Positions 11,157 through 63,862 of a DNA stretch of 64,000 nt are shown here, piece after piece. The stretch is from Bryobacteraceae bacterium. GTDB lineage: Bacteria > Acidobacteriota > Terriglobia > Bryobacterales > Bryobacteraceae. The notes under the pieces were generated by a model. That model was given only the letters and a program-made list of their open reading frames with translations. It did not search any database and was not told the DNA's origin. The position numbers were made by a program, and so were the translations under genes. How positions within the stretch are numbered: position 1 is the first letter of the stretch; the number at the start of each line of letters is the position of its first letter. Location of the stretch: the NCBI GenBank assembly GCA_045807965.1, contig JBJMGJ010000380.1:2218-66217 (forward strand). The letters run 5' to 3'.

Positions 11157-11183
11157 TCGGAAATATCCTTATCTGCAAAGCCT

Positions 11184-11210: not shown

Positions 11211-11219
11211 CTCGTTGAC

Positions 11220-11492: not shown

Positions 11493-11497
11493 TCTTG

Positions 11498-11524
11498 AAA
11501 ACCATAACCCTTGTGGGGTTATGA
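11498..11524 (-). terminator. intrinsic terminator (hairpin family)
   Basis: aaaa + ccataaccc-ttgtg-gggttatg. Confidence 0.7.
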
Positions 11525-11533
11525 TTTGTTGAC

Positions 11534-49588: not shown

Positions 49589-51640
49589 TCAGACGTTGCG
49601 AGTGAACGCCCAGTCGTTGGCGGTGTTCGGCGGGAAGTAGTAACCGGTTGCCGGGTCACCCACAACCCGGATCGTGGCACCAGCAGCCAGCGGAGGCTGG
49701 TCGCCAGCGGTCAGCACGTCGTTGGTGTCATCATTGGTGTAGATCACACCTGCCGTCGCCGGGATCGTCAGCACACCCGTCACCGGGTCGAAGGTCGGAG
49801 CGGTCGGCGTCACCAGCGTGCCAGAGGACCGGACGAAGACAAGCGCCGACTTGAACTTCGTCAACGCACCCGACATCCGGGTCTCGATCAGGTACTTGTA
49901 CTGGTTGTAGTCGATGTCGAAGTCGTCGAACAGCGAGACGGCGCCACCCCGATCGGCACCGACGGTGTAGTCGTTCATGTTGACCAGCACCGCGAGCAGA
50001 TCCCCACCGTCGACGGTGTGGTCCTCCATAGCATCGACCGTGATGATGTCACTGACCCGGAGCGCGGTCTTGAGCTCGTTCTGATCCATGTAGTATCGAC
50101 GGCCCATCTTGTCCTTACCGAGCAGCAGGTCGGTCAGGAGGTCCTCGGTGCAGTACATCGCCGGAGTACCGGAACCCCGGTACTTGGTACGAGACCGCAG
50201 GATGGACTCGACCAGCGAATCGCTTCCGGTATTGGCCGGAACAACCACACGATGCGCGAAGAAGTCGTCATCGGTCGCGATCGGCCGAATGTTGGCTTCG
50301 CTGATCTTGTCGTCGTCGTCGACCTCACGGCCGTCACCGAGCAAGATCGCCCGCGCGATCTCCTCGTCCAGCATCAGCCGCATCTCGCCCTTGAGGAAGG
50401 CGACCACGTCGAGGTCCGTGATGTCGATGATGTCATCACGGTCCAGCTTCTGCTTCTTGTAGATCGTGGTGGGAGTGGTGATCCGCTTGGCCAGCGAGAA
50501 CCACTCTTCCTTCTTCAGGCTACCCTTGACGTAACCCTTGGCACGGGCCTGATCGAGAGTGATGTCGGCGGAGACGGTCTTGATCCTCGAGAACGGCGTC
50601 TTGCGAGCACCGCCGATGACCGTGTTGACCCACTCCTGCCGACGAGCGATCAGCTCAGGCGTGTTGGAGATCGCCTTGGCATCCGGGAACAGGATGTCGA
50701 TGTTCTCGATCCCATACTCCACGGCGTGCTTGAGGAACGACTCCTTGAACGAACCCAGCTTCTTCGCGTCCTCGACGATGGTCGCGAGCTGAGAGTGGGA
50801 CAGGGTCGCGCCCGGAGCCTTCTTGTCCTGATCGAAGACGTTTGCCATGATCGTTTCGGTACCTTCCTCGTCACTGTGCTGAATGGTCTCGCCGGTGTTG
50901 TTCTGCTGGTCCGCGGGCGGAGTTTCACCAGCATCCTTATTGCCGTTCTGCTCTTCGTCGTCCTCGTCGTCCTCGTCCTCAGCCAGTGCGGACTGCTGCA
51001 GAGCCCCAGCCTGAGCCGCCTGGACAGCTTCACCGATCATGAAGTAGACGACGTTCTTCTGGTCATCGGTGAGCGTGTCGAAGACATCCTGCACGGTTCG
51101 GGTATCCTCAGCGGGAGCAGTCGAACCGTTCCCACCACCGGAGTCACCCGCAGCGTGCTCGATGTTCTCTCCTTCGAGCGGAAGACCGGTGTAGATGATC
51201 GCCTCGTCCTCGAGCTCCTCGACACCACTTCCATCGGAGTGTGCGATGGAAACATTGTCGATCAGCGCACCAGGATTCGCTCCCGACAGAACGAGTGAGA
51301 CCTCGTGGATCACACCGTGGAAGACCTGCTTGCTCCGCTCGATCAGCTTGTTGGCGTAGATCGAAAGCGTCGTGATGTCGCCGTGCTGAACGAGGGCCTT
51401 GGCCTGCTGGCCGGACTGAGTCTGATTGAAAAAGCCGTAGGTGTAAACACCTTCGTCTCGAGCTTCCAGAACCGCGTGACCCAACACGTTGGAAGGATCG
51501 TTGTGACCGTGCTGCCAGACGAGCGGAACGGTCATCTTGTCCTGGTGCTTGAACGCCTCAGGCATGATGGTTCGACCATCAGTGCACTTGAGACCAGCCT
51601 TGGTTGCCCAACCGCTGAAGTCAGCTTGTGCTGCTCCCAT
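49589..51640 (-). CDS. prohead protease - acidic linker - HK97-fold major capsid fusion protein, 683 aa
   Basis: ATG 51640 behind AAGGAGA. N-terminal VPLVWQHGHN..TLSIYAN..IHEVSLVLSGANPGA (S78-type protease pattern). EDEDDEDDEEQNG linker. The later part has a capsid-like LKGEMRLMLDEEIARAILLGDG. Confidence 0.7.
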   Translation of the reverse strand: MGAAQADFSGWATKAGLKCTDGRTIMPEAFKHQDKMTVPLVWQHGHNDPSNVLGHAVLEARDEGVYTYGFFNQTQSGQQAKALVQHGDITTLSIYANKLIERSKQVFHGVIHEVSLVLSGANPGALIDNVSIAHSDGSGVEELEDEAIIYTGLPLEGENIEHAAGDSGGGNGSTAPAEDTRTVQDVFDTLTDDQKNVVYFMIGEAVQAAQAGALQQSALAEDEDDEDDEEQNGNKDAGETPPADQQNNTGETIQHSDEEGTETIMANVFDQDKKAPGATLSHSQLATIVEDAKKLGSFKESFLKHAVEYGIENIDILFPDAKAISNTPELIARRQEWVNTVIGGARKTPFSRIKTVSADITLDQARAKGYVKGSLKKEEWFSLAKRITTPTTIYKKQKLDRDDIIDITDLDVVAFLKGEMRLMLDEEIARAILLGDGREVDDDDKISEANIRPIATDDDFFAHRVVVPANTGSDSLVESILRSRTKYRGSGTPAMYCTEDLLTDLLLGKDKMGRRYYMDQNELKTALRVSDIITVDAMEDHTVDGGDLLAVLVNMNDYTVGADRGGAVSLFDDFDIDYNQYKYLIETRMSGALTKFKSALVFVRSSGTLVTPTAPTFDPVTGVLTIPATAGVIYTNDDTNDVLTAGDQPPLAAGATIRVVGDPATGYYFPPNTANDWAFTRNV

Positions 51641-51659
51641 TTTGACTGTCTCCTTCCTT

Positions 51660-52961
51660 CTATTCGATTGCTGGTACTGTCGTCGTTCTGGTCGAAGGCA
51701 CTCGAATCGGTTCGTTGATCGAAGGGTCAACAGACGTGTCAATTGGAGTGCCAACAGGGGGTGCCTGCTGGCCTAGCTCCGATTGAGGCATGTTGCTGTT
51801 CCGAAGTTGATTCGCCTTCGGGTCGTTGGACGGCTGCATTCCGATGACCTGACGGATCTCATTGGAAGACAGGATCTCATTCCGAGTGAACTTATCCGCG
51901 ATTTCAGCAAGGTCACCGACCGGTACCAGCTTGAACGGCTCTCGGAAGTACTCAATGGACTGCTTCTGCGTTCGGGCAGTCTTGGTAAGGAAACTCCGGC
52001 GCATTGCCTCCACGATGGCAGTCAGAAGGGGCTCGATGGTACGGTTCTGATAGTTGAGCATGGTCTTCTCATCCGCCGTACCATTCATGATCTCCGGCGT
52101 AAGGCCAAGCTGACCGTAGAGCATCTCAGTCAGATACTTGATCTGAGCAAGAAGATTGTTCTCCACCGGCCGGTTCAATTGGGTGATCTTCTCAGTTCCA
52201 TCCACATAAGCAATACCATACTGGCTGCCCTTGAGCTGGAACTCGATGTCAGCGCGACGCTGTTCGGCTTGCTGTCGCCGTGCTTCCGATTTGATAACAT
52301 ATGGAAGCTGAATAACCATGTCCAGTTTGCCTGAACTCGACTGTTCATCCACGGAATCCAGAAGCCCTAGCTTCCGAATAAGCCGTTGCATGGTCGAGTT
52401 CGGCTGGTTCATGATGTCGTAGAACGGATTCTCGACAATAGCTACTGCTCTCTTGCTGAGCGTAATCTCTTCACGACGTCCGCGTCGTTCGTTGTACAGC
52501 GAAATCGTGACATGCTGTGGATGCCACTGAATAATTTCGCCAACCCGCATGGTCAAGATGTCAAAGTTGCCAGAATTCTGCGGATTTAGCGTGGTATCCA
52601 CTGGAACGATCGCGATAGTACCCTGCTGAATCAGCGACATGACCATGTCTTGCCGAAAAGCTCGTGCGCCTTGATCCAGATTAGCTTCAACGGTAAGACA
52701 ATTGTTCAACCCACTAGTGAGCTCTTCAACAAACCAGCCATTGTCATCCAGCCGAACGTGCTTCATTGCGACCGAAGCAGCATCCGTCGCAAGTCTTGTG
52801 TAAACCGAGGTGACGATCGATCGTTCATTGGTAGTCAGCAAACGAGTTCGATCTGGTCGAAGTGTGTAGCCCGGTCCCATGTCAGTACTAGGAATCCGAC
52901 CTACATCGTCCATGTTAGTGAACGCATTCCAGGCGTGAACTAATCGGTCCTTAAAGGACAT
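51660..52961 (-). CDS. portal protein, 433 aa
   Basis: Size, and position directly upstream of the protease-capsid gene. Confidence 0.6.
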   Translation of the reverse strand: MSFKDRLVHAWNAFTNMDDVGRIPSTDMGPGYTLRPDRTRLLTTNERSIVTSVYTRLATDAASVAMKHVRLDDNGWFVEELTSGLNNCLTVEANLDQGARAFRQDMVMSLIQQGTIAIVPVDTTLNPQNSGNFDILTMRVGEIIQWHPQHVTISLYNERRGRREEITLSKRAVAIVENPFYDIMNQPNSTMQRLIRKLGLLDSVDEQSSSGKLDMVIQLPYVIKSEARRQQAEQRRADIEFQLKGSQYGIAYVDGTEKITQLNRPVENNLLAQIKYLTEMLYGQLGLTPEIMNGTADEKTMLNYQNRTIEPLLTAIVEAMRRSFLTKTARTQKQSIEYFREPFKLVPVGDLAEIADKFTRNEILSSNEIRQVIGMQPSNDPKANQLRNSNMPQSELGQQAPPVGTPIDTSVDPSINEPIRVPSTRTTTVPAIE

Positions 52962-53006
52962 CTTTCACCTCCTTTCTGGAATTTAGCCTAATGCGATCAC
53001 TTACTC

Positions 53007-53606
53007 TTATTGCGTGACCACTCGTCGTCTCAGTTGACGCTGGAAAAAATTGCTTCCAACTTGAATTGTTTCTGGTGAATTACGAAGAGCACGTTTCAGC
53101 TCAACATTACGATATGCTCGAGCGATCGCTTGAATAGACTTCCGACCACCTTCGAGAGTCTTAGTCACGCTGGTACTAGTACCCTTTGCAATTCCTCGGG
53201 CTGTTCCTCGGCCAGCAGCGGTTGCTACCTTGACTCCGCCCTTACCACTTACGGTAGCCACCTTGAAGCCGACTTTGCCAGTGCCTTTGGCTACCTTCGG
53301 CACGGTTTGATAACTCGCTTTTCCAAGCTTTCCGAGAAGTTTGCCTGCGATCTTCATACCCGCCCGATTGGACTTGGATGAAAATGCGGCAGTCTTTGGA
53401 CTTTGTCCACTTTTCGCAATAATGTATAAAGCTGTCGTAGCAGCCGCGGCCACGCCTACACCGACAGCGACTTTCTTCGCTCGGGACATCTGTGGCCGAT
53501 TACCAACCAGGGGATCGTCGGGCTTTCGAACACCCCAGTGCATTCCTTTAACGCCGAAGTGAACGAGGAGGTCTTCATTGAGTTGTGGTTTATCAGCAAC
53601 GAGCAT
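53007..53606 (-). CDS. GVKGMHWGVR-tagged protein with TM and Lys/Gly-rich tail, 199 aa
   Basis: HFGVKGMHWGVRK at residues 16-28. TM segment VAVGVGVAAAATTALYIIA. Lys/Gly-rich repeats. Confidence 0.6.
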   Translation of the reverse strand: MLVADKPQLNEDLLVHFGVKGMHWGVRKPDDPLVGNRPQMSRAKKVAVGVGVAAAATTALYIIAKSGQSPKTAAFSSKSNRAGMKIAGKLLGKLGKASYQTVPKVAKGTGKVGFKVATVSGKGGVKVATAAGRGTARGIAKGTSTSVTKTLEGGRKSIQAIARAYRNVELKRALRNSPETIQVGSNFFQRQLRRRVVTQ

Positions 53607-53620
53607 GAATCCTCCTTTCG

Positions 53621-54277
53621 CTACTTCAGAAAGCCAAGGTCGACCTTGGTGCCGAATCGCAGCGTATTGATGAATCCCTTTCCTGCGTTGACCACCTTGG
53701 TGTCCAAGCCGGTTTTGTGCATGTAGCCGTATGCACCAAGCACGGCGGCGGCCGCTACTGAACCAGCGAATGGACCGTTGATACTACGATTGATCGCGCG
53801 AACGTTCTTCATCGTAGTGTTTTTGACATCCTTGCGCTTTCGCTCGGATCTAGCCTTGTCGGCATGAGTACTGAGATCTTGTTGAGCCAGGTGATGTTCG
53901 AAGGCCTTTTTGTAATCGGGGTTCCGTTTCGACTTGGCTTCGACACTCGCCTTGATCAACTTGCGTCGGGTACCCGCACCTTCGCCGTAGAACATCTTGG
54001 CTCGCGCGAATTCTACAGCATCTTTGCGAGCTTCTTTGTTGGTAGCTCGCGTAACTCCCGGAGCATCGTCCTTACGGACGCCCCAGTGCATACCCTTGAT
54101 GCCGAAGTGAATAAGCGTATCTTCATCCAGCGGAGGTTTGTTCGCACCGAAATGCATGAAACTAGATGCATCGAACGGCGTGAACCCAGCTGCTTCGTCA
54201 CGTCGTCGAAGATCGCTCTCCAACTCTTCTTGCGAAGAATAAGCCGAGGGAATGATCAAACCGGGAGTTCTAACCAT
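53621..54277 (-). CDS. GIKGMHWGVR-tagged basic protein, 218 aa
   Basis: HFGIKGMHWGVRK at residues 57-69. An alternative start at M41 would put the tag at the same N-terminal distance as in the neighbouring genes. Confidence 0.6.
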   Translation of the reverse strand: MVRTPGLIIPSAYSSQEELESDLRRRDEAAGFTPFDASSFMHFGANKPPLDEDTLIHFGIKGMHWGVRKDDAPGVTRATNKEARKDAVEFARAKMFYGEGAGTRRKLIKASVEAKSKRNPDYKKAFEHHLAQQDLSTHADKARSERKRKDVKNTTMKNVRAINRSINGPFAGSVAAAAVLGAYGYMHKTGLDTKVVNAGKGFINTLRFGTKVDLGFLK

Positions 54278-55016
54278 GTTTCACTACCTCTCTGAATGGC
54301 GTGGCATCAATGCCCATCTCCCGGTGAAGGGTTTCACCCCACGCCTTCACGAAGGCTGGTGGATTCGGATTCCAATGGTATTGAGAAAATAACTCAGCTT
54401 CGAGTTCTTCTCGAGACCCAGATGCTGCTGCGTAGCCAGAAACCCTGGATATCTGTAGATGTTCCGGAATGCCGTCTGATGCGGCTTGCTTCGTCGCAGC
54501 TTTCAACGCCGCATTCCGCGCATCTATGTTTCCGCCGACTACTTTTTGCCTAAATAAACCCGGTCTGATCTCTTGCTCGGCATGGAACAAAGCGTGTGCA
54601 GATTCGTGAGTGATGAAACCATTCACGTTGCCCGTACCTTCGGCGAACCAACCGGTTTTTTCGGCATTAGCCAGCTCTTTCCGCTGATCACCCGGACGCA
54701 TGTGCACGACACCACCGCGCTGTCCAGGAGTACTTTCCACATAACCGACCGTTCCATAGGCGTACTCTGCTGGGTTGGTTTGCTTCAGATCTTTAAAATC
54801 ACTGATCTGAAAACCATACCTCGACGCCATCAACGGAGCAATTCTCTTTGCGCCGTCCTTCGTTGAAGGATGTAAGGACGCAGCAATGGTCGGAGATGCG
54901 GCATGAAGCCGATACCCGTGGGAATCATCTGCCTTACGTACGCCCCACTTCATGCCCTTGACGCCGAAGTGAACGAGTTCATCCAGTGGCGGTTTATCAT
55001 CCTGTCCCAAAATCAC
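54270..55016 (-). CDS. GVKGMKWGVR-tagged putative zinc metalloprotease (HExxH), 248 aa
   Basis: HFGVKGMKWGVRK at residues 16-28. FITHESAHALFH (HExxH at 54594..54608). Confidence 0.6.
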   Translation of the reverse strand: MILGQDDKPPLDELVHFGVKGMKWGVRKADDSHGYRLHAASPTIAASLHPSTKDGAKRIAPLMASRYGFQISDFKDLKQTNPAEYAYGTVGYVESTPGQRGGVVHMRPGDQRKELANAEKTGWFAEGTGNVNGFITHESAHALFHAEQEIRPGLFRQKVVGGNIDARNAALKAATKQAASDGIPEHLQISRVSGYAAASGSREELEAELFSQYHWNPNPPAFVKAWGETLHREMGIDATPFREVVKHG

Positions 55017-56764
55017 TCGAACACCTCCTTATTGGCCTTCCAGGCGATGTAGGCGTCCATCAGGGCGGCCACGTTGTCGATCTTGTCTTCCCGTCGAGTC
55101 TTGAGCAACTTTCGGTTGCCATTGGTATCCTCAACGGTGATTGCGTTACCCATTGTGAACGACATTAGATTCTGATCGAACAGGAGAAGCCGCTGCTCGC
55201 TCAGAATCTTTAGCTCACCGAGCGGAACCGACTCGGTTTTGGCTCCCTGGATGACTTTCTCGATCCCGAACGGCCCGTTCTCGGCTTCCCAACGAGTAAC
55301 GAATTCCTTGGCGTTGTAGGGGTCGAAGCCCAGGGTTCTTACGTCGAACCTTTGGTCTTGAATGTAGTTATCAAGGTCGTCATAGACCTCCATCATGTCG
55401 AGGATGTTCCCGTCGAGGACATGCAAGCTGCCCTCTTGGATGAACTCCTCGTACTTCTGCCGCATTGCACCTGGCAGTTTGAATAGTGTCAACTCGGTGA
55501 TGTAACTCCGAGTCTTGACACCGAACTTACCGTTACCGAGCGGAAACAAAAATGTGAACGCACAGAAGTCATCACCCTGAGAAAGGTCTGCGCCCAGTGA
55601 ACAGGGCAGACCCCAGAATTCCCGCTGGCGATGCGGAAGCGTTTCCTCATACGTGAAGAAATACGTGTATCCTTCCATCGGAAGGCCGAATCGTTTGGCG
55701 AGAATATCATTCCGCGAAGCGGGAGCCTTCTCGGCACGTTCCACATCCAACTGATAGGTTTCATAGCTGACCGTCTTACCGATGTTCGGCTGCGCTTTGG
55801 GCCAAGTGGCCGGATCGGCAACCTCGTCGACCTCGTCCAGCCGGTAGTGCCAGATCGATACGTGCGGTGCAAGATAGTCGCCCTTGAGAATGTCCTCGAG
55901 CTCCATCTTGATGGTGTCACCCGAGCCGTTACGAACCGTTCCCTCGGAACTGATCGCGACAATCAGGTAATCATCAAGCTTGGAAGCACCCTGTTCGATA
56001 GCCCCGACGACGTCTTCCCGAATATCGCCGGAAAGCCATTCGTCCACAGTTGACACTTTGGGCCGAAGTCCCTGTAGCTTGTTGATCGACATCGGCCGGA
56101 CTTCGAGCAGACTTCCAGTAAGGAAGTTCTCGATGCCCTTCTTGGTAGCAGCAAGCTTCTGCCGAAGCAATCGGTTACCCGTGGTGTTTTGCATCGAGCC
56201 TTCGGTGAGGAACCTGAACAACGGTCCTCTGGCTCGGGTGATGGCGGTCCGAAACGGACTCATCACCTCGTCAGCCTGCTTCATGGTCGGAGCAGTCGTG
56301 ATCTGGTGCGTGGTCGCGGTGTCGACGTTGAGAAAATACGCTTGTACTGTCGAGCCGTACATCGACTTCGCCGCACCGCGAGCCACAATAAGATACTGCT
56401 TGCGAATCAAACGCTTTTTGATCAGCTTCTTCACATAGTGTCCGCCACGATGTTTGGCGTCCGGCTCATAGACGCTACGCTCCTCGAAGTAGTACCAACA
56501 GAATATCTGCTCACCCCACAGCTTGAAGGTGTCGAGCAGATGCAGATCGGTGCCATCGGTAAGCGTGAGCTCGTTCTCGCAATAGAGAATCCATCCCTCG
56601 ACGGGGCCGGGGTCGTAGTAGATGTTCGGGTTGGCGATGAGCGCGTCGATACGGTTCATCTCCATTGAGATCTGCCGGTTCACCGGGATCTCACCCCGAA
56701 TCACCGCGTCTCGGAACTGACCGTAGTAATATGGGACTGCTGTGTTCGACAGACTCATCGCCAA
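55013..56764 (-). CDS. terminase large subunit, 583 aa
   Basis: Size. P-loop-like VARGAAKS in the Terminase_1 position (R.nGKS). Acidic nuclease-half motifs. Lies in the head module. Confidence 0.75.
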   Translation of the reverse strand: MAMSLSNTAVPYYYGQFRDAVIRGEIPVNRQISMEMNRIDALIANPNIYYDPGPVEGWILYCENELTLTDGTDLHLLDTFKLWGEQIFCWYYFEERSVYEPDAKHRGGHYVKKLIKKRLIRKQYLIVARGAAKSMYGSTVQAYFLNVDTATTHQITTAPTMKQADEVMSPFRTAITRARGPLFRFLTEGSMQNTTGNRLLRQKLAATKKGIENFLTGSLLEVRPMSINKLQGLRPKVSTVDEWLSGDIREDVVGAIEQGASKLDDYLIVAISSEGTVRNGSGDTIKMELEDILKGDYLAPHVSIWHYRLDEVDEVADPATWPKAQPNIGKTVSYETYQLDVERAEKAPASRNDILAKRFGLPMEGYTYFFTYEETLPHRQREFWGLPCSLGADLSQGDDFCAFTFLFPLGNGKFGVKTRSYITELTLFKLPGAMRQKYEEFIQEGSLHVLDGNILDMMEVYDDLDNYIQDQRFDVRTLGFDPYNAKEFVTRWEAENGPFGIEKVIQGAKTESVPLGELKILSEQRLLLFDQNLMSFTMGNAITVEDTNGNRKLLKTRREDKIDNVAALMDAYIAWKANKEVFE

Positions 56765-56773
56765 CCTCCCCTC

Positions 56774-58012
56774 TTACTTCGATGTTGCGATAATGCCCTT
56801 TGTCTTTAGTTGAGCTGCGCCGTGGCTCTTGATCACCTCAGCGGCCAACTGCTTACCGACGCTGTTCAGCACATCGCCAGTCCATTTGGCACCGACCGAG
56901 GCCGCACTCTTCTGCTTGGTCTTGGTCGTGAGGTTCGTATAGTTCTGTTCGAGGTTGAGCCTACGGTTCAACTCCTCGAGATCTTTGTTCGACAATTTCC
57001 GGGTGCCATGCGCCTTGGCTGTGGCCTGCGCTTTTCGTGCATGGATGTGTTCCGGAGCATCCGGAATATGTGGCGCACTGTCAATCTGACTGCGATCCCG
57101 CCGGACACCCCACTTCATGCCTTTGATACCGAAGTGCTCGAGGAACTCAGCACCTTCAATGGCTGTCTGCGCCATGCTCTTCTTCGGCGCACCGATCTTG
57201 GTGATATGACCGGTCGAATCATAGGTGACCTTGATCACAGTACCGTCGAGCTCGTCGAACGCATCGTGCTTGACGTCAACAACCTGAACACCCCAGTTGC
57301 CGTCCGAATCAGTGACGATCTTCAGCTCTCGGGTTCCGGATGCATTGGTACCGGCTTCCTGCGCAGCTTGGCGAAGCCGCTTGATATAGGCCTGCTGGTG
57401 TTCGTTGTAGTACTGCCGACGAAGCGGTGAATCCTTGCTAAAGTCCTTGTTCTTGTACTGCGGCTTGTTGTTGATCCGGTCAATGTCACCGTGATTGGCC
57501 AGATCAGCAGCCCGGTTGTGCAGATTGATCCAGGTCGCGGTAGTGGCGGCCTTCTTCTCGAACCGCTTGTCTTCCTTGGCAATCTTCCTGGTCTTGGCTC
57601 GTTCGCCTTCATGACCGCGGTCTCGACGGACACCCCACTTCATACCCTTGACACCGTGATGCTCGACGGCATCCTCATCCTCGATGATCGCCGACTGCGC
57701 GATCGACGGAGGTGCCTGCTCGTTCAACTGGCCGTACAGCCCTTTGAGCGCCGCTCTAGCCGCCGCAAGCTTGACCGGCGGAGCTTGCACACCACCTCGC
57801 GCACCAGCCAGAGCTGCGGCCGCAGCGTGCACACCGTTTCGGTTGAGCGCTCCGTTCGGTGTCCGGACCGGAACCTTGCACTGGTCCTTGCTGGTCGGTG
57901 GTCCCTGGTGCAGATGAATCAGACACGCTGCGTGCCACTGCTCGATCGAGTAGTCGGCTTTGGTGTAGTCGCTCCATGGCTTCTCACTGACATGTTTGAG
58001 ACTGTCGGTCAT
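56774..58012 (-). CDS. doubly GVKGMKWGVR-tagged head-module protein, 412 aa
   Basis: HHGVKGMKWGVRR (residues 118-130) and HFGIKGMKWGVRR (293-305). N-terminal PWSDYTKADYSIEQWHAACLIH domain. Sits where a small terminase gene would normally be. Confidence 0.6.
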   Translation of the reverse strand: MTDSLKHVSEKPWSDYTKADYSIEQWHAACLIHLHQGPPTSKDQCKVPVRTPNGALNRNGVHAAAAALAGARGGVQAPPVKLAAARAALKGLYGQLNEQAPPSIAQSAIIEDEDAVEHHGVKGMKWGVRRDRGHEGERAKTRKIAKEDKRFEKKAATTATWINLHNRAADLANHGDIDRINNKPQYKNKDFSKDSPLRRQYYNEHQQAYIKRLRQAAQEAGTNASGTRELKIVTDSDGNWGVQVVDVKHDAFDELDGTVIKVTYDSTGHITKIGAPKKSMAQTAIEGAEFLEHFGIKGMKWGVRRDRSQIDSAPHIPDAPEHIHARKAQATAKAHGTRKLSNKDLEELNRRLNLEQNYTNLTTKTKQKSAASVGAKWTGDVLNSVGKQLAAEVIKSHGAAQLKTKGIIATSK

Positions 58013-58026: not shown

Positions 58027-58302
58027 CTATCGACGTCGGTCTCCTTGTCGGCGCTCACCACGACGACGGTCGCCGCCAAAGATTCCGTTTCGTTTCAACC
58101 AGTCGTCAACCTCGTCCGGGCTCATCTCACGAATACGGCGCTCTTGTCGGCGACGATCATCACCAATTCGAGGATCTCCCAACGGATGCTCGAGGGTCTT
58201 TTCACCAGGATGACGATGCCGAATGATCCCTCCTATCACAATCGCCACGATTAGCACCACCACTAGCAACACCACAAATTGTCCTATCCATAACCAGAGC
58301 AT
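58027..58302 (-). CDS. membrane protein with Arg-rich tail, 91 aa
   Basis: TM segment LWLWIGQFVVLLVVVLIVAIVIGGII. C-terminal GDRRRGERRQGDRRR. Confidence 0.55.
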   Translation of the reverse strand: MLWLWIGQFVVLLVVVLIVAIVIGGIIRHRHPGEKTLEHPLGDPRIGDDRRRQERRIREMSPDEVDDWLKRNGIFGGDRRRGERRQGDRRR

Positions 58303-60254
58303 TATGCCGCCGGAATAATCAGAGAAAGCACCGATTCGTTTCGAGTAGTTCCTTCCAGACCCCGATCGAAATCTCCTGGAGTGAAACTGTTCTGTCCAGG
58401 TGGTACCAAACCGGATTTGATAGCCATTACCGCATTACCACTCGGATCTGAATACAACATGTCTGAACTCGTTGCCCAAGTAGCCGAGGAATTGACGCTG
58501 GCTACCGCAATATAGACTTCATTACCTAGTGCAACTCTGCCTAGCGATACGGCTTGGGCGGCAATGGCTGCAGTGGTATTGTTACCTATGTTGTTTGCCG
58601 CTGCGGCAACGGCAGCAGTTAGACTGGCTTGAGTATAAGCTCCACACCACCAGCGAATAATACCGTTGGTAACGACATTGACGACCGCCGAAACCGAACC
58701 CGCCGTTGGTGTAAGGCGGAACGCCTGCAACAGGCCAGCGTTGGGATCACCAGGAGTACTGGTGCCAACGGCCGGAGCGAGCAGCAGGGATATGGCCAGG
58801 CCGGTGTCGGAAGTCGAGCAGGTGGCTGTGTAGGAAGCGGCCGGGGAGGACAGCGCGTCGAAGGCGTACAGGGATTCCGCGCTGGCCGCCTGAGCGGACG
58901 CGCGGGCGGCCGGTCCGGAGGCGGTGAACGTGTTGCCGTTGTACGATCCAAACGCCACCACCTTGCCGTCCCCTGCCGCCGGGATCTGCGACGGCGAGGC
59001 GAACGAGGTGGTGCTCGTCGAGACGCGGGTGAACAACGGCGGCCCGTCCAGGCCGGTCGCGCCTGCGTGTTGCAGCACCACGGCACAGGTGTAGGCGACG
59101 AGCGTCGAGAACGTGTAGCTCGTGGGTTCGGAGGCGGTGGCGGTCTTGGTGTAGACCGCGCCCTGGCCGGTGCCGGAGAACTGGCCTATGCTGCCCGCAA
59201 GGGTCCAGCCGGAGGGTGCGGAGTAGGTAGCGATCCCGGTGTTCGCCATGTAGATGATGGCGGTGAGCAGGTTCCCGGCTGCAATGTTCGCCGGGGCGGG
59301 GACGGTGACCGAGCTGCCCGAGCCCGCCGCTGCGCCGGAGCCGGAGACGTAGGTAGGGCCACCAGATACTGCCGCAATTGGCGGTCCAGAAGTTGCTAAC
59401 TGAGTAAAGGCATCCACTCGAGTGGGAAACGTCAGCGTCTGCGTATAGTTGCTATTGACAAGCAATAGCAGAAAATCACTGGCCGTCCAGTTGTCCGGTA
59501 ATGTGATCGTTGCCGATGTACCAGTCGTGGAACCGGCCTTCGATCCAGATCGAAGTTGCGGACCCGACTTCAACTCAGGATATGGATAGCCTCGAGACGA
59601 AGAAGATCCCGCGGTACCCGACCATTGCCAATTCTTTAAAGTTCCCACTCCAAGAGCTCGAGCCGGTACATAGTCACCCAAATAAAGCTGCACATTGGAA
59701 ATCTCGGCCCAGACTCCCGCAGTCAACGGCAAGTTCTGCAGATTGACTCGAATGGAAGTAATGTTCGTAACACCGACACCAATGGTAAACGTAACCCAGA
59801 CCCGAGTCGGTACTCCGGCCTTGATCGTGTTAACTCCCGAAATCGCTGCATTCTGAGTTACCGTGCCGCCAGTAACACCGGTAATCGTAATGCCATTCCA
59901 AGCATTGTCATTTGACAGCATCACGTCCCAGACAGCAGTAATCCTCTGCCCGATCAATTCCGGCCAACGGGCAGCAGCAACACCGTTTCCAGTATTGTTG
60001 AATGACAAGCCGATATCGCCGTTGGCAACACTTCGGGTCGTCCAAGTTATCCGAAAAGCGCGTCCTGATTGGGGCCAACTCGATGCCACTATCTGTTGAG
60101 TGATCGCATTGGGTGTCGTTCCCGCATAAGAACCGAACCCACCAGGGACACCGGTAACCGGCAAACTGGCAAGCGAATAATTCTCCAAGCCAGGGCGAAG
60201 AAACAAGTTTTCATACGATTGACTAGGGGCATCGAGAATTGCTGCTGCTCGCAT
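58302..60254 (-). CDS. fibre / receptor-binding-like protein, 650 aa
   Basis: ATG 60254 overlaps the upstream stop. Ala/Gly/Ser/Thr-rich beta-type sequence with a jelly-roll/CBM-like N-region (weak). Confidence 0.5.
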   Translation of the reverse strand: MRAAAILDAPSQSYENLFLRPGLENYSLASLPVTGVPGGFGSYAGTTPNAITQQIVASSWPQSGRAFRITWTTRSVANGDIGLSFNNTGNGVAAARWPELIGQRITAVWDVMLSNDNAWNGITITGVTGGTVTQNAAISGVNTIKAGVPTRVWVTFTIGVGVTNITSIRVNLQNLPLTAGVWAEISNVQLYLGDYVPARALGVGTLKNWQWSGTAGSSSSRGYPYPELKSGPQLRSGSKAGSTTGTSATITLPDNWTASDFLLLLVNSNYTQTLTFPTRVDAFTQLATSGPPIAAVSGGPTYVSGSGAAAGSGSSVTVPAPANIAAGNLLTAIIYMANTGIATYSAPSGWTLAGSIGQFSGTGQGAVYTKTATASEPTSYTFSTLVAYTCAVVLQHAGATGLDGPPLFTRVSTSTTSFASPSQIPAAGDGKVVAFGSYNGNTFTASGPAARASAQAASAESLYAFDALSSPAASYTATCSTSDTGLAISLLLAPAVGTSTPGDPNAGLLQAFRLTPTAGSVSAVVNVVTNGIIRWWCGAYTQASLTAAVAAAANNIGNNTTAAIAAQAVSLGRVALGNEVYIAVASVNSSATWATSSDMLYSDPSGNAVMAIKSGLVPPGQNSFTPGDFDRGLEGTTRNESVLSLIIPAA

Positions 60255-61600
60255 CAGTAGAACACCCCCATCACCACGCCGTACCATTGGTTTACGCCAT
60301 CCCAGAACATGTTTACTGCCAGTCGTGCACTAACCGTCGCTGGTATGCTGGGCGCAACTGCACCACCGGCCCATTTGATTCCGGTTGGCCAGGTAAGCGT
60401 ATACGGTCCACCGGTAGCCGCTTGAATAACGATGATTGTCACGGTACCGGACTTACCGAGATTGGCACTGGTCGGAAAAACGCCAATCGTAAGATTAGCC
60501 GCCAAAGTCCACACCTGAGTACCAGGCACCCAGGTTGTACCGGGAGTTACCGTTGCAACACCAGTGTTGGTCCAGGTCGACGTCGGGGCAAGATCCCCAG
60601 GATCTCCCTTTACTCCTTGGATTCCCTGAATGCCTTGAATACCTTGTGGACCGCGAACCGATGGCGTATAGAGATGGTCACCATCGGAAAGAGTAAGGTC
60701 CAATCCACTGTCGGCAGCCAACGTTGCATCGACGATACTTACACCTTGTATGCCCTGTGGGCCCTGAATTCCCTGCGGACCTTGTGCACCCGGATTACCA
60801 GGTGGGATATAGAATCGGAGCTGGACATCTTGCGGAGTTCCGATGTTCTCGACCCCAGCGTAGTCACCAGGATTGGTCATGATCGTGTTTGCAACGGCTA
60901 CTGTTGCTGCTGCTCCAGGTTCTCCTTGGATACCCTGGATTCCCTGCTCTCCCGGAGTTCCCGGTACACCCTGCGCACCGCGAGCCGCAAGCGGCTGCCA
61001 GTCGGTTCCGGGATCAGTGTCTGGTACAACACCGGTAGATCCAGCAACTGCAAACCAGGCGGAACCGTTGTAGTAGGTTGCGTCGTTCGGCGCATAGGCG
61101 GTGTTTGCATTCCAGACACCGCGCCAGGTCAATCCAGCCGGACCTGCTGGACCTTGAGCTCCAGGCTCACCAGGAATTCCCTGGATACCTTGAATGCCCG
61201 GTATACCTTGATCACCCTTGGCCCCTTGAATGCCCGGCAATCCTTGCAGACCTTGATCGCCTTTCGGACCGGCATCTCCCGGGTCGCCCTTAGCACCTGG
61301 ATCACCAGGATTACCTTTGATACCCTGGTCGCCTTTGGGGCCAGGTGCACCGTCGATGCCTCGTTCCCCAGGATCGCCTTTCGGCCCAGGTGGGCCTGGA
61401 GCTCCGTCGATCCCTCGAATGCCGATATCACCCTTAGGACCCGGGTCACCCTGTGGCCCTGGCGGGCCTACTTCACCATCTCGACCGGCTTCACCAGGAA
61501 AACCCTGCGGGCCCCGTGGGCCGACCAGGGCAACCTCAGCGAATTCGACGACTACTTCCGGCAACGGCGGCTCTACGACGACGATCACATCATCAGGCAT
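60254..61600 (-). CDS. collagen-like repeat fibre protein, 448 aa
   Basis: About 130 uninterrupted residues of G-X-Y (about 61136..61522) plus three shorter G-X-Y blocks, with a globular C-terminus. Confidence 0.8.
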
Positions 61601-61955
61601 AGGTCACCTCCGTAACCAGTTGATTGACCTGCAGTCGACCGGACAGAATTACCAGTCCGCGAGCATTCGGATCGTTGGCGTCGGCGATCACCACGTCGTA
61701 ATAACCGCCGTGCACGGTTTTGGACTGATTCCCGTCCAATGCGAAGTCGATGACGATGTCCTCGGCATCGTAGGAAGGGGTCATAAACGGCGTCAGATCC
61801 GTTTTGAGCGTCGAACGGCTGTTGTTCCCTACCCGTACCTGGCTGAGGACTGAAAAATCAGCCAAGGTGGGCCAGACGGCCCGTCCACCGACGATCCGGA
61901 AGCGCCTAGCGTAGGAAAGACCGGCTACGATGGTAAGGTCAAGGGTGACTGCCAT
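61593..61955 (-). CDS. hypothetical fibre-module protein, 120 aa
   Basis: ATG 61955 (MAVTLDL) behind GAAGGA. Confidence 0.5.
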
Positions 61956-62296
61956 GCCGATCCTTCCCGTTGCACACTGAGCCGCCACTCGAGTTCCCGG
62001 ATCTGCTCGTTCAGCGCATTCATCACGAATGAGTTACCCGGCGGATCGAACAGGATCTTGACCCGGAGAAATACGTAAGTACGCACCGAGTTCAGTTGCT
62101 TGTCGATCCCGAGGAAATCTTCCCAGACGGCTTCGGCATCCTCGACCAGAAAGCCGTCCTCGGGTCCGATCCCCAGTTGCGAAAGAACCGTGAACACCGT
62201 GTTGATGTGCATCAGGATATCGACATCGAACACGTCGTAGTCGGGAGCGATTCCGAGAGCCTTCTTGGTACTGTCGAGGATGCTTTCGCCTGCCAT
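61925..62296 (-). CDS. hypothetical fibre-module protein, 123 aa
   Basis: Track ORF. ILDSTKKALGIAPDYDVFDVDILMHINTVFTVLSQLGIGP resembles small proteins I recall beside fibre genes in Gram-positive phages. Confidence 0.55.
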   Translation of the reverse strand: MAGESILDSTKKALGIAPDYDVFDVDILMHINTVFTVLSQLGIGPEDGFLVEDAEAVWEDFLGIDKQLNSVRTYVFLRVKILFDPPGNSFVMNALNEQIRELEWRLSVQREGSAWQSPLTLPS

Positions 62297-62320
62297 TCAG
62301 AACACCTCCTTGGAAATGAG

Positions 62321-63862
62321 TTAGGACACGCCTGCCCAGAAAGCCGAAACGGATGCCGCACTGGCCAGAGCGATGGAAGTTGGCAAGGCAGTCTGACCGG
62401 TTCCGATACTGCCGAACCGATAAGCACCGGCAGCCAGGCCAATGTTGTTACCAGCATTCTGGCTACCCGAACGCCATAGCGTCGGCGGCGTAGTGCCGTT
62501 GGCCAGGAAACCGACATAGACCAAATCGCTACCGGCAATAGCCAGTGACTTTCCCGCCACCGGAGTGACGACAGCTGAATGTGCGCCAACAGCTCCGAAC
62601 GCAGTGGTCTGGTCCGGGCAGGTTCCGATCAGCGCGCCAGATGAGTCGTAAACCCCGACCAGGTTCTGTCCTGCGGTGAGACCAGCACCTGCTGCGTTGA
62701 AGCCATACCAGACCTTGCTGATCGTGGCAGGCTGACGAATCGGCACCTTGACGAAGATAACCGTGCCGTTCAGTAGAGGAGAGTTCGATCCGATTGCCGC
62801 CGGATCGAACGCAGCAGCGATCAATCCATTATCGACCGGATTCCAGGCGGCAAGCGAGCCAATCGGCGCAGGTACCTGTTCGCTCTGCATGGCTGCGTAG
62901 TGCGCAGCGATCTGCTGGGCAGTCAGCGCTTTGCCATAGATGGCAACCTTGCCCATCCCGCCCTTGAAATAAGAATGCCCAGGCCGTCCGCCGAGATAGA
63001 TTGGTGAGTCACCGTTGACCGGAACGATGTTGTACGGGTCACCCCAGGAATCCTGGTCCCGCTGGACACCATTCTTGTAAAGGGTGACCGTGCCCCAACC
63101 ATCGGCACCTTTGTTGACCCCGTCGAAAACCGCGACCAGATGCATCCATTGACCGCTGGTAAGGACATCTTCGGCATAAGATCCTGCACCCAATCCACCT
63201 TCAGGATTGAATACATAGGATGAAGTTCGATTGGGTCGAGTCGAATTGCGACTGTACATCCGCACGCAGTACTCGATGTTACCCCCGGGCCCAGTACGGT
63301 TCCCCTTGTACAAAGGATAGACCAACGGTCCATCAGTCGAAGTTTCTGGGTTGGGGAAGTCATAAACATCGGGCCGGATCCAGACCTCGAGAGTCAACTG
63401 TCCAGTCTTGGGAACCGAAAAATTATCTGCATCCGGAACTGTCAAGTACTGTGTGATTCCATCGAAGGTAACCGCTGCATCGCCATTGGGCATGGCAGAA
63501 ACACCCGGTGTTCCGGTGAATGTCGCTGTGTTCGAACCGACCTTGTCGGCGACCGTTGTCAGTCCAGCGGATAGCGGCCAGAACCCTACCGGTTTGTCGG
63601 CTAATATGACCGCATCGTAGGACCCTGCTTGAGCGATCGTCTGGACAACTTCAGCCTGCGAAACGCCTAGCTCAGAAATGACCGGCGCAGGAAGCGTGTA
63701 CGGCGCCAGGTCGTCCCGATACGGAAGGTCGTTCCAGTGCGTATGGCCGTCACCGATCTTGACCTTACCGGTGTCCTCGTCGAACCCGGGCTCACCACTG
63801 CCGAGAATCGGGTTACGGCTCTGCCATTGTGCCTGAGTGCGAAACTTAGGAAGATCAGCCAT
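62321..63862 (-). CDS. fibre protein: Mtd_N-like N-terminus + LamG/ConA-like lectin domain, 513 aa
   Basis: N-terminal FRTQAQWQSRNPILGSGEPGFDEDTGKVKIGDGHTHWNDLPY. LTLEVWIRPDV..WMHLVAVFDG..VTLYKNGV (LamG-like). Confidence 0.65.
   Translation of the reverse strand: MADLPKFRTQAQWQSRNPILGSGEPGFDEDTGKVKIGDGHTHWNDLPYRDDLAPYTLPAPVISELGVSQAEVVQTIAQAGSYDAVILADKPVGFWPLSAGLTTVADKVGSNTATFTGTPGVSAMPNGDAAVTFDGITQYLTVPDADNFSVPKTGQLTLEVWIRPDVYDFPNPETSTDGPLVYPLYKGNRTGPGGNIEYCVRMYSRNSTRPNRTSSYVFNPEGGLGAGSYAEDVLTSGQWMHLVAVFDGVNKGADGWGTVTLYKNGVQRDQDSWGDPYNIVPVNGDSPIYLGGRPGHSYFKGGMGKVAIYGKALTAQQIAAHYAAMQSEQVPAPIGSLAAWNPVDNGLIAAAFDPAAIGSNSPLLNGTVIFVKVPIRQPATISKVWYGFNAAGAGLTAGQNLVGVYDSSGALIGTCPDQTTAFGAVGAHSAVVTPVAGKSLAIAGSDLVYVGFLANGTTPPTLWRSGSQNAGNNIGLAAGAYRFGSIGTGQTALPTSIALASAASVSAFWAGVS

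Follow-up and report, generated by a model that had tools for sequence, protein, structure and literature searches.

The peptide tag that recurs around the terminase gene in the window, by which we mean the whole 64-kb stretch of DNA analysed, marks one phage head/packaging module with a very conserved large terminase subunit (TerL), a portal protein and a prohead protease–major capsid fusion. The explanation that we favour, at a probability of about 0.45, is that the tag is a capsid- or packaging-vertex-targeting peptide working like the capsid-targeting sequences of T4 or P1.

Results

All five copies of the tag listed in the preliminary description were recovered (Table 1), four by a degenerate DNA pattern, all on the minus strand, and the fifth by a six-frame peptide scan of the window, which revealed no sixth copy. 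The DNA pattern gave zero matches in 100 dinucleotide-preserving shuffles (chance expectation 0). The copies share the consensus L-x-H-[FH]-G-[VI]-K-G-M-[KH]-W-G-V-R-[KR], and each matches Pfam PF23847 (DUF7211) above the gathering score, with E values from 3.6e-10 to 1.3e-23. They are confined to four minus-strand genes that flank terL or precede the portal gene, in agreement with the gene context first described. Pairwise, the copies differ at 5–14 of 39 nucleotides, mostly at synonymous sites, and in nine of the ten pairs synonymous codon differences are at least as numerous as non-synonymous ones. As the preliminary description had proposed, selection therefore acts on the peptide, and recent duplication does not account for the copies. 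Apart from their tags the four proteins have no significant similarity to one another, which bears out the earlier statement that the sequences following the tag are unrelated.

Table 1. Features of the tagged head/packaging module in the window.
Feature	Sequence	Position	Strand	Location or evidence
Protease (S78)–major capsid fusion, candidate tag partner		49589..51754	-	Peptidase_S78 E 2.3e-5; phrog_3270 E 4e-238
Portal protein, candidate tag partner		51660..52961	-	Pfam Phage_portal E 1.2e-17; phrog_12 E 3.9e-50
199-aa protein: N-terminal tag, TM-like segment, Lys/Gly/Ala-rich basic tail		53007..53606	-	DUF7211 E 3.6e-10
Tag copy 5	HFGVKGMHWGVRK	53523..53561	-	aa 16–28 of 199-aa protein; DNA pattern and peptide scan
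218-aa basic helical protein		53621..54277	-	tag core aa 57–69; DUF7211 E 1.9e-10; phrog_6291 E 9e-60
Tag copy 4	HFGIKGMHWGVRK	54071..54109	-	218-aa basic protein; DNA pattern and peptide scan
248-aa protein: N-terminal tag and HExxH domain (aa 40–248)		54270..55016	-	DUF7211 E 7.7e-12
Tag copy 3	HFGVKGMKWGVRK	54933..54971	-	aa 16–28 of 248-aa HExxH protein; DNA pattern and peptide scan
Terminase large subunit (terL)		55013..56764	-	Pfam TerL_nuclease E 4.7e-36; phrog_9 E 2.3e-108
412-aa two-tag protein, directly upstream of terL		56774..58012	-	ORF; two DUF7211 stretches, E 1.3e-23
C-terminal helical domain	LSNKDLEELNRRLNLEQ...	56777..57088	-	aa 309–412; three long helices in AF2
Tag copy 2	HFGIKGMKWGVRR	57098..57136	-	aa 293–305 of 412-aa protein; DNA pattern and peptide scan
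Middle module	NNKPQY...YYNEH...DSTGHI	57188..57610	-	aa 135–275; pLDDT 90–98; helices and beta-sheet
Tag copy 1	HHGVKGMKWGVRR	57623..57661	-	aa 118–130 of 412-aa protein; six-frame peptide scan, DUF7211 match
N-terminal folded domain	PWSDYTKADY...CKVPV...NRNGVHAAAAALAGARGG	57713..57988	-	aa 9–100; pLDDT 92–97
Lactococcus 1706 ORF6-family protein		61925..62296	-	phrog_4247 E 5.3e-49

The preliminary description had not assigned the motif to a characterised family; it is already catalogued as DUF7211, a nearly invariant peptide of roughly 20 residues to which Pfam assigns no function. The tag is borne by 21,178 protein clusters, and the module that it marks is found in Actinobacteria and Firmicutes, both in phages and in prophages. 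No paper in the literature library searched mentions DUF7211 or the motif. The first tag lies within 60 residues of the upstream in-frame stop in 196 of 202 tag-bearing ORFs (77 loci); tags are also internal, between the modules of beads-on-a-string proteins, and long tagged proteins carry three to five of them at a spacing of about 150–350 aa. In two independent AF2 models the tag has a pLDDT of about 50 or less beside flanking domains at 90–98; it is thus predicted to be disordered, with confidently folded domains on either side. The motif is absent from all PDB chains. Since the tag is predicted disordered and matches no fold or solved structure, nothing links it to the core of a known enzymatic fold, which is one part of the outcome that the preliminary description had named as speaking against its own reading.

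Might the tag mainly be a proteolytic processing site? Multi-tag polyproteins would then be cut at each tag and N-terminal tags would be removed propeptides, with the fused prohead protease or another protease as the cutter. The position of three to five tags at module boundaries and in predicted disordered linkers agrees with this, as do modules that are found either fused or as separate genes starting just upstream of the tag, and a protease domain is present on every capsid subunit. In T4, too, the targeting sequence is reportedly removed by cleavage (work cited in PMC9024508). However, the residue preceding the invariant His of the tag is variable, which leaves no T4-like L-x-E site, the protease–capsid fusion has no tag-like sequence despite being necessarily self-processed, and about 13 nearly invariant residues are more than a plain cleavage site needs. 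We consider such a main role unlikely. Processing and targeting are compatible, as targeting followed by cleavage is possible.

The two-tag protein (phrog_7021, of unknown function, with a 99%-identical counterpart in a JGI metagenome) consists of an N-terminal domain, a tag, a middle module, a second tag and a C-terminal domain. Its AF2 model has a mean pLDDT of 80, with values below 50 at the tags, for most of aa 108–130 and aa 281–297. The N-terminal domain, for which searches of Pfam, NCBIfam and the PDB gave no match, is also present in stand-alone proteins of 230–260 aa, always followed by the tag, and motifs of the middle module recur between tags in the consensus of multi-tag proteins. 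The C-terminal domain is the single-copy core domain of the system: jackhmmer detected it in 60 of 77 loci, with 51 of the 61 hits just upstream of TerL and 10 just downstream. The initial picture of variable cargo is therefore right in that unrelated proteins share the tag, but the protein upstream of terL, which holds this conserved domain, is not just variable cargo.

The other three tagged proteins of the window differ in character. The 248-aa protein is modelled by AF2 at a mean pLDDT of 89 and a pTM of 0.82 (near 50 pLDDT in the tag region), and T136, H137, E138, H141, H145, E204, E206 and E208 are invariant among 109 homologues, which are annotated as peptidase or protease in Streptomyces and Arthrobacter phages. 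A search of the PDB gave no significant fold match; the HExxH domain is a putative zincin-like metallopeptidase. Cargo homologous to the 218-aa protein is found at 8 of 77 loci. If the real start of this protein is the ATG at 54277, which has a Shine-Dalgarno-like GAGAGG upstream, its tag is not N-terminal: the core begins only at residue 57. The TM-like segment of the 199-aa protein (aa 46–64, nt 53415–53471; Kyte-Doolittle 19-residue maximum 2.04) lies 17 residues past the tag core, and the protein has a net charge of +0.146 per residue.

Searches across genomes, a check of the kind that the preliminary description had suggested, linked the tag to the head/packaging cluster in hundreds of them. 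The tag was found in 161 of 50,697 phage records, all from host genera that also hold this TerL lineage. The lineage comprises 251 phage records, and among the matches listed from these the TerL proteins are 58–83% identical in amino acids to that of the window. Three further phages of the lineage were all tagged in a tag-profile scan, Arthrobacter phage Qui nine times. At 72 bacterial-genome loci located through the tag alone, homologues of TerL, portal and protease–capsid fusion adjoin the tags in most cases, with phmmer E values of about 1e-247 or lower for full-length TerL hits. The genes at tag loci follow the order 1706-ORF6-like gene, tag gene(s), TerL, tag genes, portal, and the 1706-ORF6-like gene is directly upstream of the core tag gene in most relatives (synteny, 63 loci). 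1706 ORF6 carries the RefSeq label “virion structural protein”, and its homologue in Streptomyces phage Namo the note “head-to-tail connector complex protein”. The tag was not found on TerL, portal, capsid or the 1706-ORF6-like protein. The protease–capsid fusion of the window, which likely starts at the ATG at 51640, has an acidic linker and a net charge of -0.07 per residue.

The co-occurrence of tag and head module could partly reflect the shared ancestry of one phage lineage and not a functional link. The tag might then bind a conserved host factor or nucleic acid, for instance as a degron or as a ribosome-, Clp- or DNA-binding motif, and its association with head genes would be inherited gene order. 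The lineage is monophyletic, so the co-occurrence is indeed partly phylogenetic (bioRxiv 10.1101/842583), and the tag itself is basic, as are the attached proteins. However, tagged genes are confined to the late head/packaging cluster and are not found in early or replication regions, and tags co-vary within a phage genome. At its variable positions the core tag has an identity of 0.50 to the other tags of its own genome versus 0.37 to the core tags of other genomes, it is closer to own-genome tags in 39 of 44 loci (Wilcoxon p = 2e-7), and all nine Qui tags have the variant GMKWGK[RH]K. This co-variation suggests a phage-specific partner rather than a host partner common to phyla. We regard a host-factor or nucleic-acid role as quite improbable. 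The similarity within genomes could also have arisen from duplication or recombination and not from co-adaptation.

Each genome encodes one conserved core member, in which the tag is joined to the helical C-terminal domain and which adjoins terL, together with a variable set of basic or membrane proteins, GNAT, 2H phosphoesterase and HExxH proteins. The 211 post-tag segments fall into 84 sequence clusters, and the recognisable domains attached to tags are 2H phosphoesterase and GNAT. On average the attached proteins are basic (+0.097 per residue), which, next to an acidic protease–capsid fusion, fits proteins inside a DNA-filled head. A TM-like, strongly hydrophobic segment is present in 50 of 206 post-tag segments (24%), unusual for soluble head cargo and thus a point against targeting.

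These segments raise the alternative that the tag is a membrane or secretion signal for monoderm hosts, like YSIRK, KxYKxGKxW or an interfacial Trp/Lys anchor, and that the proteins act at the host envelope in lysis control, superinfection exclusion or assembly anchoring. The 199-aa protein of the window has such a segment, many Qui homologues are annotated as membrane proteins, the hosts are Actinobacteria and Firmicutes, and a lysis cassette lies just upstream in relatives. Nevertheless, three quarters of the tagged modules lack such a segment, and where there is one its distance from the tag is widely variable (median 75 residues). Internal tags follow folded domains of cytoplasmic type (GNAT, 2H), NCBIfam signal-peptide models gave no match, and the invariant H, G, G, W and G across two phyla suggest a protein partner and not a lipid. 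We regard a membrane signal as very improbable.

The position of the core gene bears on a further alternative. It occupies the usual place of the small terminase subunit, and the genes scanned near terL include no recognisable small terminase, which also counts against targeting. The tag could be a handle for the terminase: the core protein would be the small-terminase equivalent and bind TerL through the tag, and the remaining tagged proteins would work at the packaging motor or control it and stay unpackaged. The core domain is small, basic, helical and single-copy and directly adjoins terL in 60 of 77 loci. No other protein of the lineage is as conserved as TerL, in keeping with the near-invariance of the tag, and the small terminases of lambda and P22 are established to dock on TerL through peptide motifs. 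The core protein, however, matches no small-terminase family in Pfam, PHROG or NCBIfam, and one protein with the core domain, Lactococcus phage 1706 ORF7, has a structural-protein annotation, whereas terminase subunits are not normally in virions. It is also hard to explain why as many as nine different proteins, enzymes and membrane proteins among them, should dock on TerL. We therefore judge a terminase handle to be rather unlikely.

Discussion

How could the tag work as a targeting peptide? DUF7211 would be a short docking peptide, intrinsically disordered and specific to a single type of phage head/packaging module. Its partner may be a single conserved component, either of the prohead during assembly or of the packaging vertex, and binding would bring the attached protein into the particle. 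Two classes of protein would be recruited: a core class, encoded beside terL, with the tag joined to a C-terminal domain that is basic and helical, and a fast-changing accessory class of basic or single-pass membrane proteins and of enzymes, among them the HExxH protein, GNAT acetyltransferases and 2H phosphoesterases. By analogy with T4 internal proteins and P1 DarB, the tagged proteins may be internal head proteins that are delivered to the host with the DNA.

Phage 1706 ORF7, in which a tag, the core domain, a second tag and an HExxH-motif segment follow one another, carries the GenBank label “structural protein”, as does ReqiPepy6 gp019, which has an N-terminal tag; both labels are database annotations. 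In the 2008 paper on phage 1706, structural proteins were reportedly identified by SDS-PAGE and LC-MS/MS. Virion support for targeting thus consists of database labels for one or two relatives, which counts against it. The preliminary description had proposed a shared addressing or processing signal; head-cluster linkage and an annotated virion relative fit addressing best, and processing is retained as a rival.

Several known systems resemble this one in part. MuF-family polymorphic toxins and SPP1 gp7-type minor head proteins likewise combine a conserved N-terminal part with variable C-terminal domains and have a gene adjoining the portal gene of temperate or virulent siphophages, and they are thought to be head-internal and injected (PMC5576092). 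MuF (PF04233), however, folds into a domain of some 200 residues or more, whereas DUF7211 is a disordered stretch of about 20 residues on many genes per genome; a Pfam search of the window found no MuF match.

In Staphylococcus phage 80alpha, capsid and scaffold proteins share a Prp/L27-type N-terminal cleavage motif, again a conserved motif on otherwise unrelated head proteins. That motif imitates ribosomal protein L27, and a host protease present in Firmicutes cleaves it. To our knowledge the sequence of the 80alpha motif is unrelated to DUF7211, and Actinobacteria, whose phages also carry DUF7211, are believed to lack that protease. Encapsulin cargo-loading peptides, which are short, Gly-rich and disordered and have a flexible linker, bring unrelated cargo proteins to the inside of a shell with the HK97 fold. 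They bear a superficial likeness to the tag, in which Gly, hydrophobic residues and Lys alternate, and capsid binding by DUF7211 is a candidate interaction. Encapsulin peptides are usually C-terminal with a GSL-type consensus different from that of DUF7211, and encapsulins have neither DNA nor a portal.

The capsid-targeting sequence (CTS) of T4 has about 10 residues, and we know of no obvious resemblance of DUF7211 to it or to the DarB signal. Unlike T4 and P1, the tagged phages are siphoviruses whose capsid protein is fused to the protease and which lack a separate scaffolding core. Their tag is also internal and repeated, about a quarter of the attached proteins look membrane-anchored, and the tagged genes are arrayed around terL; loading and cleavage are here candidate steps. 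The T4 and P1 proteins are made late, loaded into the prohead and delivered with the DNA, and their cargo includes enzymes and counter-defence proteins (PMC3012670, PMC9024508). In DarB the first 30 residues are enough to direct the protein to the capsid (PMC9024508), and the diverse T4 internal proteins have the capsid-targeting sequence as their only common feature (PMC3012670). In T4 (IPI–III, Alt) and P1 DarB, as with DUF7211, a short N-terminal peptide is the only feature common to diverse, fast-evolving phage proteins.

Results

Five tag copies on four unrelated proteins

A degenerate DNA pattern for H-F-G-x-K-G-M-x-W-G-x-R-K has four matches in the window, all on the minus strand, and none in 100 dinucleotide-preserving shuffles of it. 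The fifth copy comes from a six-frame peptide scan, which revealed no further tag in the 64 kb. The five copies are spread over four minus-strand ORFs (see the table), and outside the tag the four proteins show no significant similarity to one another. Pairwise, the copies differ at 5–14 of 39 nucleotides, with synonymous codon differences equalling or outnumbering non-synonymous ones in nine of the ten pairs. Because of the copy scans, the ORF positions, the synonymous excess and the dissimilar non-tag parts, the preliminary description, which placed motif copies on otherwise unrelated proteins flanking terL and preceding the portal gene, stands in all material points. We reject a chance origin, for which zero matches are expected, and also a recent duplication, against which the preliminary description had argued as well, since the differences between copies are mostly synonymous.

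Features of the window discussed in the text
Feature	Position	Strand	Remarks
Tail-fibre-like genes	58302-63862	minus	Upstream of the terL cluster; 513-aa protein with tail-fibre-type N-terminus, 448-aa collagen-like fibre protein, 661-aa protein without matches
1706-ORF6-like gene	61925-62296		Interleaved with the tail-fibre-like genes
91-aa ORF	58027-58302	minus	Just upstream of the two-tag gene
412-aa protein	58012-56774	minus	Directly upstream of terL; two tag copies
Fifth tag copy, HHGVKGMKWGVRR	57623-57661	minus	From the six-frame peptide scan
terL	56764-55013
248-aa protein	55016-54270	minus	Between terL and portal gene; one tag
218-aa protein	54277-53621	minus	Between terL and portal gene; one tag
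199-aa protein	53606-53007	minus	Between terL and portal gene; one tag
Portal gene	52961-51660
721-aa ORF	51754-49589		Downstream of the tagged genes; S78 prohead protease joined to major capsid protein
Primase–polymerase, 1257 aa	16822-20595	minus	Full-length match to phrog_4210; lineage-typical

Family assignment and anatomy of the tag

All five copies match PF23847 (DUF7211), a 25-position Pfam family without assigned function, with 39.5–44.8 bits for the three single-tag proteins and 82.4 bits for the two-tag protein (gathering score 27 bits). The motif has been catalogued before as a DUF only, and a literature search with "DUF7211" and motif strings returned no relevant paper. A Pfam scan of the four proteins (E up to 0.1) found nothing besides DUF7211 and a sub-threshold DUF6681 in the 218-aa protein. 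The PHROG families that they match are of no known function, except phrog_35934 ("virion structural protein"), which is matched via the tag alone. From 187 distinct tags the consensus reads [DN]-[EYF]-L-x-H-[HYF]-G-[VI]-K-G-[MQ]-K-W-G-V-R-[RK], where H, G, G and W are fixed by the extraction pattern, which 203 of the 211 profile matches fit. The linker that follows is usually Gly/Ser-rich or basic. Firmicutes tags (e.g. at loci L015, L016, L018 and L061) carry a second conserved stretch, RRYQN-x-DGSLT-x-AGKKRY or NGPPYPL, an extension absent from actinobacterial tags.

In AlphaFold2 models built from 92- and 109-sequence alignments, the pLDDT of the tag is about 50 or less, against 90–98 for the adjoining domains. 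Near-invariant yet predicted to be disordered alone, the tag has the signature of a linear motif that would bind a partner or be processed, outside any fold. The preliminary description had also considered that the motif might be the core of a known enzymatic fold; the disorder in both models, the absence of the tag from all PDB chains searched and the insignificance of fold matches speak against this, and we reject it. Two known motifs were likewise rejected as the identity of the tag: the Prp/L27-type host cleavage motif, with which sequence and host range disagree, and the WXG motif of type VII secretion, for which spacing and context are unfit.

In 196 of the 202 tag-bearing ORFs at the 77 loci of our census, no more than 60 residues separate the first tag from the in-frame stop upstream, the exceptions being internal tags of fused proteins. 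The best matches in the representative library are proteins of 500–1500 aa with 3–5 tags spaced about 150–350 residues apart, and the modules between tags are found either fused or as separate genes, which start just ahead of the tag. Domains that lack a tag of their own precede the first tag at the far N-terminal end; they are the N-terminal domain seen in the window, 2H phosphoesterase and GNAT. Such strings of modules bring up the rival reading of the tag as a polyprotein processing site; no conserved T4-like L-x-E cleavage site was found beside it, and tag cleavage would be compatible with docking (see Discussion). In T4, the prohead protease removes the targeting sequence. A tag-only alignment search returned exclusively predicted proteins of 29–86 aa (P0001–P0120), many of them little more than a tag, and so was uninformative about attached domains. 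Some of these small proteins are encoded on long contigs; P0073 (29 aa), for instance, is present on 28 contigs, the longest of 132 kb. Fragments, wrongly called starts and genuine tag-only peptides are possible explanations.

Lineage of the phage and distribution of the tag

The window derives from an uncultured siphovirus. Its 412-aa protein has a counterpart of 99% identity in a JGI metagenome, and its 248-aa protein recurs unchanged (100% identity) as an NCBI protein from a contig that was binned as "Bryobacteraceae bacterium" (Acidobacteria). Because all cultured relatives infect Actinobacteria or Firmicutes, this is probably a phage contig binned in error. By megablast, about a quarter of the head-gene region aligns to Streptomyces phages such as Rima, Namo and Bing at ~77% nucleotide identity. 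At the protein level, TerL shares 71–83% identity with the listed TerLs from phages of Streptomyces, Gordonia, Arthrobacter, Rhodococcus, Curtobacterium and Microbacterium; for the listed Lactococcus phages P092 and P078 the value is 58%. This lineage, comprising an actinophage supercluster, 1706-like phages and Faecalibacterium phages, has been described, with a YonO-like RNA polymerase (bioRxiv 10.1101/842583), and for Arthrobacter clusters AM and AU a protease–capsid fusion and an endolysin upstream of the terminase were noted (PMC5513430). Protease–capsid fusion and gene order are described in these two papers; the motif is mentioned in neither.

Every relative examined carries the tag, mostly N-terminally, in the gene upstream of terL and in genes between terL and the portal gene. 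Tag numbers are four in Streptomyces phage Namo, five in Streptomyces phage Bing, seven in ReqiPoco6, eight in ReqiPepy6, nine in Arthrobacter phage Qui and two each in P092, Camille and Lactococcus phage 1706 (both in ORF7). Searching a 25-aa consensus tag retrieved 161 of 50,697 phage records, all from host genera of this TerL lineage, and a profile of the five window tags matched 21,178 protein clusters (50% identity) in 1.84 billion representative proteins at E <=0.001, from soil Actinobacteria phages and human-gut Lachnospiraceae, Faecalibacterium and Blautia prophages. Scanning 185,579 bacterial and archaeal species genomes yielded 72 loci; most belong to Lachnospiraceae, Oscillospiraceae, Blautia, Faecalibacterium, Hungatella, Atopobium, Collinsella and Actinomyces, or lie on MAG contigs of phage size.

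Our census of these loci places the tag beside a head module in nearly all of them: close homologues of the window TerL (full-length matches at phmmer E ~1e-247 or lower), portal and protease–capsid proteins adjoin it, the exceptions being short contigs, contig-end cuts and three loci with tags but no head genes within 10 kb (L061, L070 and L064). The order is 1706-ORF6-like gene, tag gene(s), TerL, tag gene(s), portal, sometimes another tag gene, and protease–capsid. At L061 (JAEEHF010000085.1), four tags in three ORFs lie 16–36 kb from the head module that the same contig (89.8 kb) carries; at L070, a contig binned as Kiritimatiellae has a single tag gene and, over 10 kb around it, no homologue of the head genes; and L064, on a Streptomyces chromosome, has a perfect HYGVKGMKWGVR inside a repeated "FHALASGFPSER" sequence, probably a relic or out of frame. 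On a Saccharibacteria-binned contig (L021, 10883–13022), the portal gene has its first ~95 codons in two copies, and a tag gene (11175–11690) separates the truncated copy from the intact gene, an arrangement that looks like a scar from recombinational insertion of a tag-gene cassette.

Core protein and the terminase question

The C-terminal 104 residues of the 412-aa protein make up a core domain of three long helices (AlphaFold2) with the motif LSNKDLEELNRRLNLEQ. It was found in 60 of the 77 loci, with 51 of its 61 matches just upstream of TerL and ten just downstream. Could the tag be a terminase handle and the core protein (tag plus core domain) the equivalent of a small terminase? As for a small terminase, the core gene directly adjoins terL and is present once per genome, and the tagged core protein is the sole conserved small gene product encoded beside terL; no terminase small subunit or separate scaffolding gene was recognisable among the scanned head and packaging genes (window 49589–58012 and relatives). 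A helical C-terminal domain is by itself not diagnostic, however, and the core protein matched no small-terminase family, nor the small-terminase fold of a DNA-binding domain plus oligomerisation helices, in Pfam, PHROG, NCBIfam, PDB-sequence or Foldseek searches.

The 91-aa ORF just upstream of the two-tag gene encodes a protein that combines a hydrophobic N-terminal segment with a tail rich in Arg (GDRRRGERRQGDRRR) and gave no match in family searches; relatives have a holin at this place. The capsid gene is followed downstream by the tape-measure and major tail genes, and the unusual order of fibre and tail genes is also seen in ReqiPepy6 and ReqiPoco6.

Accessory proteins and their tags

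The 211 post-tag segments fall into 84 sequence clusters, the second largest of which (36 members from 31 loci, ~300 aa) has a hydrophobic segment. Post-tag segments are basic, with a mean net charge of +0.097 per residue, and 50 of 206 contain a transmembrane-like segment at variable distance from the tag. These segments raise the possibility of a membrane or secretion signal. The extended signal peptides of Gram-positive bacteria (YSIRK, KxYKxGKxW), however, have their motif in the n-region at a short fixed distance from the hydrophobic h-region, which is not seen here; there is no NCBIfam signal-peptide match, and internal tags exist.

Among 63 multi-tag proteins, 2H phosphoesterase/LigT domains occur in 14 and 6 (two Pfam models) and GNAT in 5, in agreement with the annotations "RNA ligase", "phosphoesterase", "hydrolase" and "acetyltransferase" in phages of Gordonia and Streptomyces; eight post-tag segments taken at other loci gave no match in Pfam. 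Zincin metallopeptidases, for which the 248-aa protein is a candidate, combine an HExxH motif with a third ligand in a zincin fold. The 248-aa protein contains a confidently folded domain (AF2 pTM 0.82) in which T136, H137, E138, H141, H145, E204, E206 and E208 are invariant in 109 homologues, and homologues are annotated as peptidase or protease. The Foldseek search suggested by the preliminary description found no significant match for this folded part; likeness to anthrax lethal factor and MMP-11 was insignificant (E >1).

Do the tags of one genome resemble each other? At variable positions, the core tag has a mean identity of 0.50 to accessory tags of its own genome and of 0.37 to core tags of other genomes (TerL identity <=85%), and the likeness is higher within the genome in 39 of 44 loci (Wilcoxon p = 2e-7). 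In Qui (L078), which at 113.7 kb is about twice the usual genome size of the lineage, all nine tags read GMKWGK[RH]K instead of the usual GMKWGVR[KR]; eight of the tagged genes are consecutive within the terL–portal interval, where five genes are annotated as membrane proteins, four of them tagged. The within-genome likeness fits adaptation to a genome-specific partner, but could also stem from duplication or recombination inside the genome. One rival reading takes the tag as a host-factor motif. A possible self-mimicry was also considered, and no tag-like sequence was found in TerL, portal, capsid or the 1706-ORF6-like protein (all E >1).

Virion labels

ORF7 of phage 1706, encoded directly upstream of terL, consists of a tag, the core domain, a second tag and a C-terminal segment with HExxH (HELHH), and is a "structural protein" in the authors' GenBank record. 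The structural proteins of this phage were reportedly identified in 2008 by SDS-PAGE and LC-MS/MS. ReqiPepy6 gp019, with an N-terminal tag, bears the same label, in contrast to its ReqiPoco6 homologue; this difference hints at experimental support in Pepy6, although the label may merely reflect similarity to phage 1706. The GenBank labels of 1706 ORF7 and ReqiPepy6 gp019 are what supports a putative presence of tagged proteins in proheads or virions.

Discussion

In the best-supported model, to which we assign a probability of about 0.45, the tag is a putative docking or addressing peptide through which late proteins, a modular set, would reach the head during assembly. The partner of the tag could be the inner surface or the acidic linker of the protease–capsid fusion, comparable to encapsulin cargo peptides, or the portal, as for SPP1 gp7 and MuF proteins, or TerL. 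Among the weakest points of the docking model is the high share of membrane-type proteins attached to the tag. A more far-reaching version, which we hold only tentatively and consider less likely than not, is that DUF7211 serves as a portable cargo-loading peptide of a DNA phage capsid, with an arsenal that would be injected along with the genome. Binding partners would then be the portal or the protease–capsid fusion, the latter through its inner surface or acidic linker, and modular, rapidly exchanged enzymes and membrane-active proteins would enter Actinobacteria and gut Firmicutes.

If the tag is a loading signal, it would define a large undescribed class of virion-delivered phage proteins, hundreds of families of no known function would become candidate injected effectors, and enzymes such as GNAT and 2H phosphoesterases could counter host defences. 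The same role would account for the unusual array of genes that separates terL from the portal gene. A 20-residue handle could serve to package foreign proteins in phages that infect Gram-positive hosts, which has been done with the signals of T4 and P1, and, should these proteins indeed be injected, deliver chosen proteins into Actinobacteria and gut Firmicutes. Even with TerL or portal as its partner, the tag would offer a testable entry to the assembly of a head module without recognisable small terminase or scaffold.

How does this arrangement compare to known systems? Tagged genes adjoin the portal gene and have a variable C-terminal domain, similar to SPP1 gp7 and MuF proteins, which associate with the portal (PMC5576092); in contrast, the Phage_Mu_F domain (PF04233) was not found in the four tagged proteins. 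As a cargo-loading peptide, DUF7211 would be a phage counterpart of encapsulin targeting peptides, which bind the shell protein, of HK97 fold, on its inner surface. In T4, a capsid-targeting sequence is the sole common signal of diverse internal proteins (PMC3012670), and DarB of P1 has an N-terminal signal (PMC9024508); the tag, too, is a short N-terminal peptide common to unrelated proteins of one phage. The proposed kind of system, in which diverse internal proteins bear a signal for capsid targeting, is known from T4 and P1; new are the peptide itself, its beads-on-a-string repetition, the arraying of tagged genes around terL, the organisation into core and accessory proteins and the breadth over Actinobacteria and gut Firmicutes.
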